Origin: an uncultured Chloroflexia bacterium
Lineage (GTDB): Bacteria > Chloroflexota > Limnocylindria > Limnocylindrales > CSP1-4
Direction: 5' to 3'
Length of the DNA stretch: 64,000 bases
Assembly: GCA_963791725.1 (NCBI GenBank)
Contig: CAWBTQ010000008.1
Location: 360,359 to 424,358 of the forward strand
Shown piece by piece: positions 30,272-30,876 of the stretch (position 1 is its first letter; the number at the start of each line of letters is the position of its first letter). The notes below the pieces were generated by a model. The model worked only from the letters and a program-made list of their open reading frames with translations, was not told where the DNA came from and made no database searches. A program made the translations under genes and the position numbers.

Positions 30272-30283
30272 GGGCTCATTCTA

Positions 30284-30295
30284 GAACGCCCGTTC
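30284..30295. promoter_or_regulatory. perfect GAAC-N4-GTTC dyad (Cheo/LexA-box-like) at the head of a 600-nt gene-free region
   Basis: tctaGAACgcccGTTCtcagctag lies 13 nt after the hflX stop. The half-sites match the Gram-positive/actinobacterial SOS box core; its function here is unproven. Confidence 0.3.
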
Positions 30296-30433
30296 TCAGC
30301 TAGACACAGGACGCCGAGCCGGGGCCACTACCCGTGTTGGCAGTGCGTGGACAACTCCCAAAACAGCCTGCCACGCAGCCGAAAGTGGTGGATAAGCCCC
30401 TTCCTCAGACGGGCCGCCGGGCCTAGATTTTGT

Positions 30434-30757
30434 CTTGCCCGGAGGGGCCAGCGAGATCACACCAAACCAGCGGTTTCGACGGAAACGGTGCAACGCCCTC
30501 CGCGAAGGTTCTTGGACCCGCAACGGCTCAGGGATCGGAGCGAAGAACGCAAGCCGCGGAAGACGGAATGTAGAGGGTTCGGTGGCAAGTCCGGCAGTGG
30601 CCGGAGCGCAGGTCGCCGTTTGAGCGAGGAGTCTTCGGATCCCTTGCTCGCGGAGGTCGAAGCGGCCGGTACGCGCGAACTCGCAGAACGGTCGCGTTAG
30701 TTCCTCCGGGCGCTTCTTTGTGTCCGGATGCGGGCGTTGGGGTGCACGGCCTCAGGC
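30434..30757 (+). repeat. copy 1 of a conserved repeat element with 9-bp terminal inverted repeats (GCCCGGAGG...CCTCCGGGC) and a conserved tail; candidate structured ncRNA or MITE-like element
   Basis: CTTGCCCGGAGGGGCCA (30434-30450), a 250-nt variable core, then GTTCCTCCGGGCG (about 30700-30712), CTTCTTTGTGT and GGCCTCAGGC (30748-30757). The same ordered motifs recur at 33690-33847. Confidence 0.5.
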
Positions 30758-30766
30758 GGGCTGTCT

Positions 30767-30802
30767 GTTGAGGCGGACCCAACGGTTGAGGCGGGCCCAA
30801 CG
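30767..30802 (+). repeat. tandem direct repeat 2 x 18 bp GTTGAGGCGG(A/G)CCCAACG
   Basis: gttgaggcggacccaacg gttgaggcgggcccaacg, each unit with a GTTG...CAAC internal dyad. A related GGAGACCCCAACGG / CCCTCAACC pair lies at about 33490-33535, downstream of the GT-C gene. Confidence 0.5.
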
Positions 30803-30876
30803 ACGGCACGGCAAGCGGGGGAGGGGACCGAGGCGGTATTCTCGGCCGCGACCCGCATCGCATCACAAGGAAGTCC

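Follow-up and report, generated by a model that had tools for sequence, protein, structure and literature searches.

A predicted structured small RNA gene downstream of hflX, with a distal LexA-type dyad, in Candidatus Limnocylindrales

Two observations serve as precedent for small RNAs (sRNAs) linked to LexA: in C. glutamicum, the LexA operator of the 6C RNA gene is located upstream of the -35 element and exerts only partial repression (PMC5014011), and in M. tuberculosis, LexA chromatin immunoprecipitation (ChIP) peaks were found at sRNA genes, including that of Ms1 (MTS2823) (PMC3381160). The LexA motif of Firmicutes and Actinobacteria is GAAC-N4-GTTC, and variants of it have been reported in Chloroflexi (PMC4951493). 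Here we analyzed a stretch of 64,000 nt (hereafter, the window; CAWBTQ010000008.1, assembly GCA_963791725.1) from an uncultured Chloroflexota bacterium of the order Ca. Limnocylindrales, in which a perfect GAAC-N4-GTTC dyad opens a 600-nt region located between hflX and a glycosyltransferase gene (GT2). A preliminary description had proposed that this region produces an SOS-controlled small RNA or peptide, or serves as a long 5' leader of GT2. Our results indicate that it is, as far as can be predicted, a self-contained non-coding RNA gene of ~288 nt (about 290 nt; hereafter, the long form), with a paralog of ~93 nt (the short form) in the same window, and that the dyad is likely a LexA-type operator acting at a distance. 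The lineage is that of the abundant uncultivated soil and peat Limnocylindria (formerly Ellin6529), for which a literature search found no published regulatory data.

The predicted gene shares with 6C RNA its nature of a stand-alone sRNA gene in a high-GC bacterium and the position of the candidate LexA operator, upstream of the -35 element and not over the core promoter. However, the 6C operator lies ~50 bp from the transcription start, compared to ~145 bp here, and 6C RNA is ~100 nt long with two C-rich loops, neither of which applies to the window RNA; the phylum also differs, and Rfam gives no 6C match. Y RNAs, the partners of Ro60/Rsr, pair their 5' and 3' ends into a conserved basal stem, vary in the size and sequence of the distal module and occur as clustered paralogs, and the Y RNA system of Deinococcus is linked to UV stress. 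By analogy, the window RNA seems to resemble them only in this logic of a conserved basal stem and a variable distal module: its basal helix is a perfect 13-bp duplex devoid of the bulged Ro-binding motif, Rfam again gives no match, and a Y RNA identity was rejected as no TROVE/Rsr gene occurs among the 20 window ORFs (open reading frames) scanned. Regarding 6S and Ms1 RNAs, the long form is close to Ms1 in size and its ends are likewise paired, but its consensus fold is multi-branched and not rod-like with a central bubble, Rfam gives no 6S match, and the 93-nt paralogs are too short. The Ms1 synteny consists of oxidoreductase and HAD hydrolase genes (PMC9130861); it is absent at the window locus, and Ms1 was rejected for this reason. 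Judged by Rfam, fold, synteny and neighbouring genes, the window RNA is not 6C, 6S, Ms1, Y RNA, SRP RNA, RNase P RNA, tmRNA or a riboswitch.

The RNA gene and its family

A search with HflX retrieved 80 homologous loci with 74-95% amino acid identity, from metagenome-assembled genomes labelled Chloroflexota, Ca. Limnocylindria or Limnocylindrales. When the 605-nt gap following hflX was compared by BLASTN, positions 30325-30736 of the window proved to be kept at 74-82% nucleotide identity in ~20 of the 80 loci, referred to below as the near clade; the remaining 59 loci form the distant clade. A sub-segment of the gap recurs beyond the near clade, and a second time inside each locus. The features involved are the following.

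28892-30271, + strand: hflX coding sequence, from the ORF list, with stop codon TGA at 30269-30271
30436-30723, + strand: long-form structured small RNA, defined by alignment and covariation, with its 5' arm at 30436-30448, its 3' arm at 30700-30712 and a U-rich tail at 30713-30723
33692-33784, + strand: short-form paralog RNA (~93 nt), which has the 13-bp closing helix and the U-rich tail in common with the long form, from covariance model R1

The alignment of the long form yielded with RNAalifold a multi-branched fold of 78 pairs, 15 of which show compensatory changes. In this fold, 95.6% of the cells are paired as compared with 34-50% in slid controls, and the covariation score reaches 0.223 versus 0.05-0.10. 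The ends of the RNA are joined by a closing helix of 13 bp that contains two invariant tandem G·U pairs and is found in both the long and short forms. One position of this helix is A-U, G-U or G-C but never A-C, and the 5'-arm variants GCUCG and GCCUG, which occur with an unchanged 3' arm, can form U·G pairs on the + strand only. Since these G·U and U·G pairs are strand-specific and the covariance model described below scores higher on the + strand, we take the + strand to be the transcribed one.

A pattern search for GCCCGRAGGRGC followed by CCTYYGGGC returned one or two elements per locus, 84 in total and all of them on the hflX strand. The two arms are separated by 263-268 nt in the long form, which is restricted to the near clade, and mostly by 69-76 nt in the short form. 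The short-form alignment (A2) has 97.8% of its cells paired and a covariation score of 0.34 versus 0.02-0.08 in slid controls. Covariance model R1, built from the short form, gave 90 + strand hits in 68 of the 80 hflX loci, again all on the hflX strand, with scores of 84-98 bits compared to 24-33 bits on the reverse strand; for the short paralog of the window, the scores were 83.9 bits (+ strand) and 29.2 bits (- strand). This paralog has the same ends and the same promoter layout as the long form and a different, shorter interior. What had been described as repeat copy 1 is part of this relationship, as positions 30433-30450 match 33689-33706 exactly over 18 nt. In the distant-clade loci L026, L043 and L080, some copies have two or three hairpins at the apex, with CUUG or GCAA tetraloops as caps.

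The preliminary description had found no convincing ORF in the region, and the comparison agrees with it. The alignment contains long invariant runs without three-base periodicity, 1-nt indels and no conserved ORF, and a coding function is excluded because of these indels in the relatives, which also break the 117-aa ORF at 30347-30700; this ORF and the others of the region were rejected on that basis. A 31-codon frame passing through GTG-GAT-AAG looked conserved in three close relatives and fails across clades: considered as an SOS type I toxin or peptide, it has no conserved start, the frame shifts between clades and its end varies. Thus, of the two products originally proposed, the structured small RNA is the one that covariation and the absence of a conserved ORF sustain, and the small peptide has to be dropped, no short ORF being conserved. 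Two sequence repeats that had been read as structure fared less well. The 2 x 18-bp tandem repeat and the 8-bp hairpin GTGCGTGG/CCACGCAG both exist, but the hairpin, which overlaps the conserved box GTGGACAA described below, is at 30345-30378 and not at 30326-30365, the tandem repeat is specific to the window, and neither is conserved in relatives, so that both were rejected as elements of RNA structure.

The suggested comparison with known families was carried out and none matched. With the Rfam 15 covariance models, the window gave no match at the gathering threshold, and permissive searches likewise gave nothing relevant, whether in 30150-31000 (E <= 10) or in five related loci (E <= 1). 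No tRNA or tmRNA was reported by ARAGORN. The RNA is thus best described as a predicted new family of structured sRNAs that is missing from Rfam and represented by two paralogs in the window. It adds to the catalogue a well-supported structured family whose 290-nt form is large enough for a complex function. The family has no match in viral contigs, and a phage origin of the gene was rejected on this ground. Because the basal helix is strictly conserved while the interior can be swapped, recognition of the base of the RNA by a protein is suggested.

The predicted gene possesses signals for its own transcription.

30401-30429, + strand: predicted sigma-70-like promoter, with a weak -35 TTCCTC (30401-06), a 17-nt spacer and a -10 TAGATT (30424-29)

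None of the 90 covariance-model hits lacks a TAnnnT hexamer in the 18 nt ahead of it, and the hexamer stands 6-8 nt from the 5' end of the RNA. Many copies have a TTG-type -35 element 17-18 nt further upstream, and homologs carry TTGGCA, CTTCC or CTTGCC at the -35 position. A consensus promoter scan called no promoter at 30401-30429. The conservation of these elements argues that the RNA gene has its own promoter, and TAGATT is predicted to set the transcription start at ~30436, the first paired base. A terminator-like hairpin (GGGCCGCCGGGCC + AGATTTTGTC) was flagged by the scan at 30411-30433, inside the -35/-10 spacer; in relatives, a GC-rich palindrome of different sequence is often present at the same place. 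At the other end of the gene, the 13 nt following the 3' arm contain 6.5 T on average (5-8 T in 86 of the 90 copies; range, 4-9). A standard scan did not call a terminator there; the GC-rich 13-bp stem is long-range, with arms 70-270 nt apart, and the U-tract is interrupted. Together, the closing helix and the U-rich tract should act as a candidate intrinsic terminator.

The end of the RNA bears directly on the possibility that the region acts in cis on the GT2 operon, as a 5' leader or attenuator in which the closing helix and U-tract work as a conditional terminator. The segment concerned is organized as follows.

30726-30808, no strand assigned: spacer of variable length and without conservation, in which the window-specific 2 x 18-bp tandem repeat occupies 30767-30802
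30809-30856, + strand: conserved GT2-upstream block GCGGGG(T)AGGGGA...GGTATTCTCGGCCGC (also given as ...GGTATYCTCGGCCGC), with a -10-like TATTCT at 30837-42
30877-31635, + strand: GT2 glycosyltransferase gene (Pfam PF00535, E = 1.3e-25), with ribosome-binding site (RBS) AAGGAAG at 30867-73

The AAGGAAG RBS noticed earlier is in place (30867-30873, before the ATG at 30877). A GT2 gene on the same strand follows the long form in all near-clade loci, and the interrupted U-tract may be leaky. In the window, moreover, the RNA tail (30713-30734) is complementary over 22 nt to the GT2 RBS region (30852-30873), with a pairing energy of -37.8 kcal/mol (z = -4.6). However, this pairing is absent in 20 relatives (mean z = 0.06) and, being strong in the window only, was rejected as a conserved interaction. 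The RNA ends in its closing helix and U-tract, and what follows is an unconserved spacer that brings the distance from the 3' arm to the GT2 ATG to 86-165 nt among relatives. Next comes a block that is conserved on its own, carries a TATYCT hexamer and is distinct from the RNA; all near-clade loci have it 20-70 nt ahead of the GT2 start. This block may be the own promoter of GT2. Furthermore, short homologs with the same ends precede unrelated or opposite-strand genes, the distant-clade loci have no GT2 at all, and no Rfam riboswitch matches. We therefore regard a GT2 leader, which had been one of the original suggestions, as very unlikely. In several relatives, (G)TAGGGGAG, a sequence resembling the GT2-upstream block, is found just upstream of the dyad.

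The GAAC-N4-GTTC dyad

The window contains two perfect dyads, and the short paralog is preceded by a degenerate one.

30284-30295, no strand assigned: LexA-type dyad GAACGCCCGTTC (= GAACgcccGTTC), with extended form TAGAACGCCCGTTCT at 30282-30296; conserved in 21 orthologous loci
17723-17734, no strand assigned: second dyad GAACGTCCGTTC (in TGTAGAACGTCCGTTCGG), in the 120-nt ruvA/ruvB spacer; conserved in L081 and L082
33540-33551, no strand assigned: degenerate dyad GAACAGATGTAC, with one mismatch, 153 bp upstream of the short paralog

The perfect dyad announced after hflX is present as tctaGAACgcccGTTCtcag, 12 nt from the stop codon. Whether it exceeds random frequency depends on the measure: by count in the window it does not (two perfect dyads for 0.92 expected, with at least two in 22 of 100 shuffles), but by conservation it does, and its significance comes from the relatives and not from the window count. 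In the 21 orthologous near-clade loci, it stands at the same alignment position, perfect in 18 and with one mismatch in 3, the arms being 90-100% conserved as compared with 38-76% for the spacer and 29-71% for the flanks. Per 10 kb, perfect dyads number 1.05 in the near clade and 0.06 in the other 59 loci, a ~17-fold difference; nearly all of those in the near clade are at the post-hflX position. This pattern argues that the dyad is under selection.

The partner of the dyad seems to be the RNA gene. The distance from the dyad to the RNA 5' arm is fixed at 151-154 bp (152±2) in near-clade loci, and the one from the upstream stop codon varies from ~12 to >100 nt between loci. L001 has an additional 301-aa ORF inserted after hflX; there, the dyad remains with the RNA, 15 nt past the inserted ORF. 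The short paralogs of the near clade also carry it, at -152 to -154 in all cases (perfect in 4 of 18, one mismatch in 12). Since both near-clade paralogs have the dyad at -152±2 and the distant-clade copies have none, it is best seen as part of the control module of the RNA gene.

The fixed distance is also what separates this interpretation from a roadblock or insulator, in which LexA bound at the dyad would stop read-through from hflX (or from GT2/PMT_2 in the case of the paralog) into the control region of the sRNA and, once LexA is cleaved, transcription reading through would lengthen the RNA or interfere with it. In favour of this, no conserved element stands closer to the upstream stop than the dyad, which comes 12 nt after hflX in the window and 15 nt after the inserted ORF in L001; a scan of the interval from the hflX stop to the dyad revealed no terminator-like site, and the promoter is too distant for occlusion. 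However, a roadblock does not need a fixed spacing of 152±2 bp to the RNA, and the distance from the upstream stop is variable. We consider such a role quite improbable. As for the claim that the dyad heads a transcript, it does not hold, the RNA having its own predicted sigma-70-like promoter ~145 bp downstream. An SOS promoter at the dyad itself was rejected on either strand, as only 5 of 21 loci have a TAnnnT and a minus-strand TAGAAT is specific to the window.

To which protein the dyad belongs is best addressed at the ruv locus, for which three related contigs (L081, L082 and L083), retrieved by a RecA-based metagenome search, were compared. The second dyad of the window ends 7 nt before a -10-like TATGAT (17742-47) and 34 nt before the ruvB GTG at 17768, the hexamer being 21 nt ahead of this GTG (ruvA/ruvB spacer, 17719-17768). 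It is kept with different spacers in L081 (GAACACCCGTTC) and L082 (GAACACGCGTTC), each time beside a -10-like hexamer, and in a one-mismatch version in L083. The extended form GAAC-R-Y-C-C-GTTC is common to the ruvB site and the RNA-linked sites. Thus, ruvB appears to have its own SOS-type promoter, separate from that of ruvCA. The presence of the same motif before ruvB in the window and its relatives supports the LexA/SOS identity of the dyad, and the first identification of the dyad as a Gram-positive-type LexA box is supported by this motif and by a conservation that spares the spacer. Among the core SOS genes, the comparison covered ruvB, which has the motif, and recA, which does not.

The resemblance to the Gram-positive LexA ('Cheo') box extends to several traits: the arms are identical and separated by 4 nt, the arms are conserved while the spacer varies, spacer positions 1 and 4 tend to R and Y as in CGAACRNRYGTTYC, and the window motif before ruvB stands beside a -10 element. 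It differs in that the site at the RNA genes does not overlap the promoter, that recA has no site here, and that LexA binding is a prediction from sequence. Taking both sides together, we judge it likely that the dyad is a LexA-type (SOS) operator.

The dyad could instead be the operator of another dimeric transcription factor, its match to the Cheo box being coincidental. The recA gene without the motif would agree with this, as would the absence of lexA and its autoregulatory site among the window or close-relative loci, the bias of the spacer to R-N-C-C, which leaves no perfect extended palindrome, and the -145 position, unusual for LexA. But ruvB is a classical SOS gene, and in four related genomes its -10 element is directly preceded by the same motif; GAAC/GTTC arms with a 4-nt spacer also fit the LexA motif of neighbouring phyla. 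Moreover, the sole HTH gene nearby (28362-28589) is a window-specific insertion that cannot explain a clade-wide site; it was rejected as the regulator of the dyad for the same reason. Another factor is therefore unlikely in our view. The HTH gene, of the HTH_3 (Cro/C1-type) family, and an overlapping 96-aa membrane ORF occupy 28362-28876 between miaA and hflX, and this segment looks like a recent insertion, the miaA-hflX gap being only ~100 nt in most other near-clade loci.

A small Lys-rich ORF (~20088-20239, ~50 aa) lies directly upstream of recA, and its sequence is kept in L081 and L082. Only in two more distant recA loci of the metagenome search was lexA found, close to recA (L091, 7959-8564; L110, 15113-15706), and these were of no use for deriving the Limnocylindrales motif.

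The GTGGAYAA boxes and the control of the RNA

Between the dyad and the promoter, a second type of conserved site was observed.

30334-30343, + strand: degenerate box 1, GTGTTGGCAG, 11 bp upstream of box 2; the equivalent of this near-clade block in distant loci is the GTGG(A/G) box at -103
30347-30354, + strand: box 2, GTGGACAA (reverse complement TTGTCCAC), resembling a DnaA box
30388-30395, + strand: box 3, GTGGATAA (reverse complement TTATCCAC), adjacent to the -35 region and found ahead of essentially every copy in every locus
33602-33685, + strand: control region of the short paralog, with GTGGACA at 33602 and 33643 (41-bp spacing), -35 TTGCCC at 33656-61 and -10 TACAGT at 33680-85

Every copy is preceded by three GTGG(A/G) boxes spaced 11 and 41-42 bp apart (at about -103, -92 and -50). 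The second and third usually read TGTGGAYAA and CGTGGATAA, the reverse complement of the DnaA-box consensus; in the reverse-complement orientation, box 2 reads TGTGGATAA or TGTGGACAA and box 3 corresponds to CGTGGATAA (reverse complement), the consensus used for comparison being TTATCCACA. The count of GTGGAYAA-type boxes in the window (3 versus 1.1 expected) is not significant. Our guess, from the resemblance to TTATCCACA, is that DnaA binds these putative sites, and an OmpR-type response regulator would fit the 11-bp direct-repeat spacing equally well. DnaA-box-regulated promoters, such as those of dnaA and sda in Bacillus, likewise have several phased boxes in one orientation directly upstream of the promoter, and the boxes here match TTATCCACA or TTGTCCACA at 8-9 of 9 positions; the difference lies in the target, which is here an sRNA gene, and in DnaA binding being putative.

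Such an arrangement raises the possibility that the conserved unit works mainly at the DNA level, as a DnaA-box cluster for replication control or DnaA titration, the RNA structure being secondary. The three boxes share one orientation, many are perfect TGTGGATAA, a helical phasing of 11 and 42 bp is found in every copy, and copies often occur in tandem. Nevertheless, GC skew is flat across the window without any switch in gene orientation, so that a replication origin at the locus was rejected; selection acts on the RNA, as strong strand-specific covariation and G·U pairs show, and every copy has a complete promoter and a U-tail. We thus consider a mainly DNA-level element extremely improbable.

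The explanation that we favour, with moderate confidence, is a composite one, in which an sRNA gene with its own promoter is modulated by LexA at the distal dyad and by the protein that binds the GTGGAYAA boxes. LexA would bind the dyad at -152±2, probably jointly with the GTGGAYAA-box binder (DnaA, by our guess); once bound, it would modulate the RNA promoter, and the output of RNA would follow DNA damage or replication status. The regulatory link from LexA to the RNA is our inference, and SOS control of the RNA is plausible.

Several observations weigh against this explanation. The centre of the dyad is ~145 bp upstream of the predicted start and, at this distance, the dyad is too far for classical promoter occlusion; at ruvB, by comparison, the operator abuts the core promoter. 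No conserved -10 element follows the dyad on either strand: a proper TAnnnT, read by eye, is present in the 5 long-form loci (of 21) counted above, and in neither the window nor its closest relative, L020. Among SOS genes, recA, as the preliminary description had already remarked with some surprise, has no GAAC-N4-GTTC with at most one mismatch in its upstream region (20040-20420), and lexA was not found in the window or close-relative loci, so that the clade motif cannot be derived from it. Most dyads of the short paralogs are degenerate, those with one mismatch being the majority. The distant-clade RNA copies have no dyad, which implies that the LexA input is not essential to the RNA. Nothing but resemblance to TTATCCACA assigns the GTGGAYAA boxes to DnaA. 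Finally, the folding energy of the window RNA (z = -1.5) is little better than that of shuffled sequence, and the support for its structure therefore comes from covariation and not from energy.

If correct, the composite explanation would offer a testable case of a non-coding RNA gene that integrates signals of DNA damage and of replication, through an unusual promoter architecture in which a distal LexA-type site is in fixed phase with three DnaA-like boxes. For Limnocylindria, the analysis also provides a candidate for the SOS motif, with ruvB and the sRNA family as two candidate members of the regulon. A broader proposal, which we find doubtful, is that of a Limnocylindrales-wide class of modular RNAs, with an invariant 13-bp basal helix containing tandem G·U pairs and interchangeable interiors of 60-270 nt, which would be placed under the joint control of DnaA (three boxes) and, in a sub-clade, of LexA, and would report replication or DNA damage, possibly to a helix-recognising protein. 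Their constant linkage to hflX, which encodes a ribosome-rescue GTPase, may be meaningful or fortuitous.

Surroundings of the RNA copies

In the distant clade (L021-L080, ~7340-8000), an ORF (~190 aa as read in L046) lies between hflX and the first RNA gene, and two short RNA genes are often arranged in tandem, 230-900 nt apart. The short paralog of the window is located after a PMT_2 gene and before a convergent HicAB pair (33947-34548, - strand), made of a HicB-like antitoxin (Pfam PF15919) and an overlapping 71-aa upstream ORF, which has no Pfam match and was taken as HicA from its sequence. With tblastn, HicA/HicB homologs were found after the short RNA in several near-clade loci, where they are mostly on the + strand.

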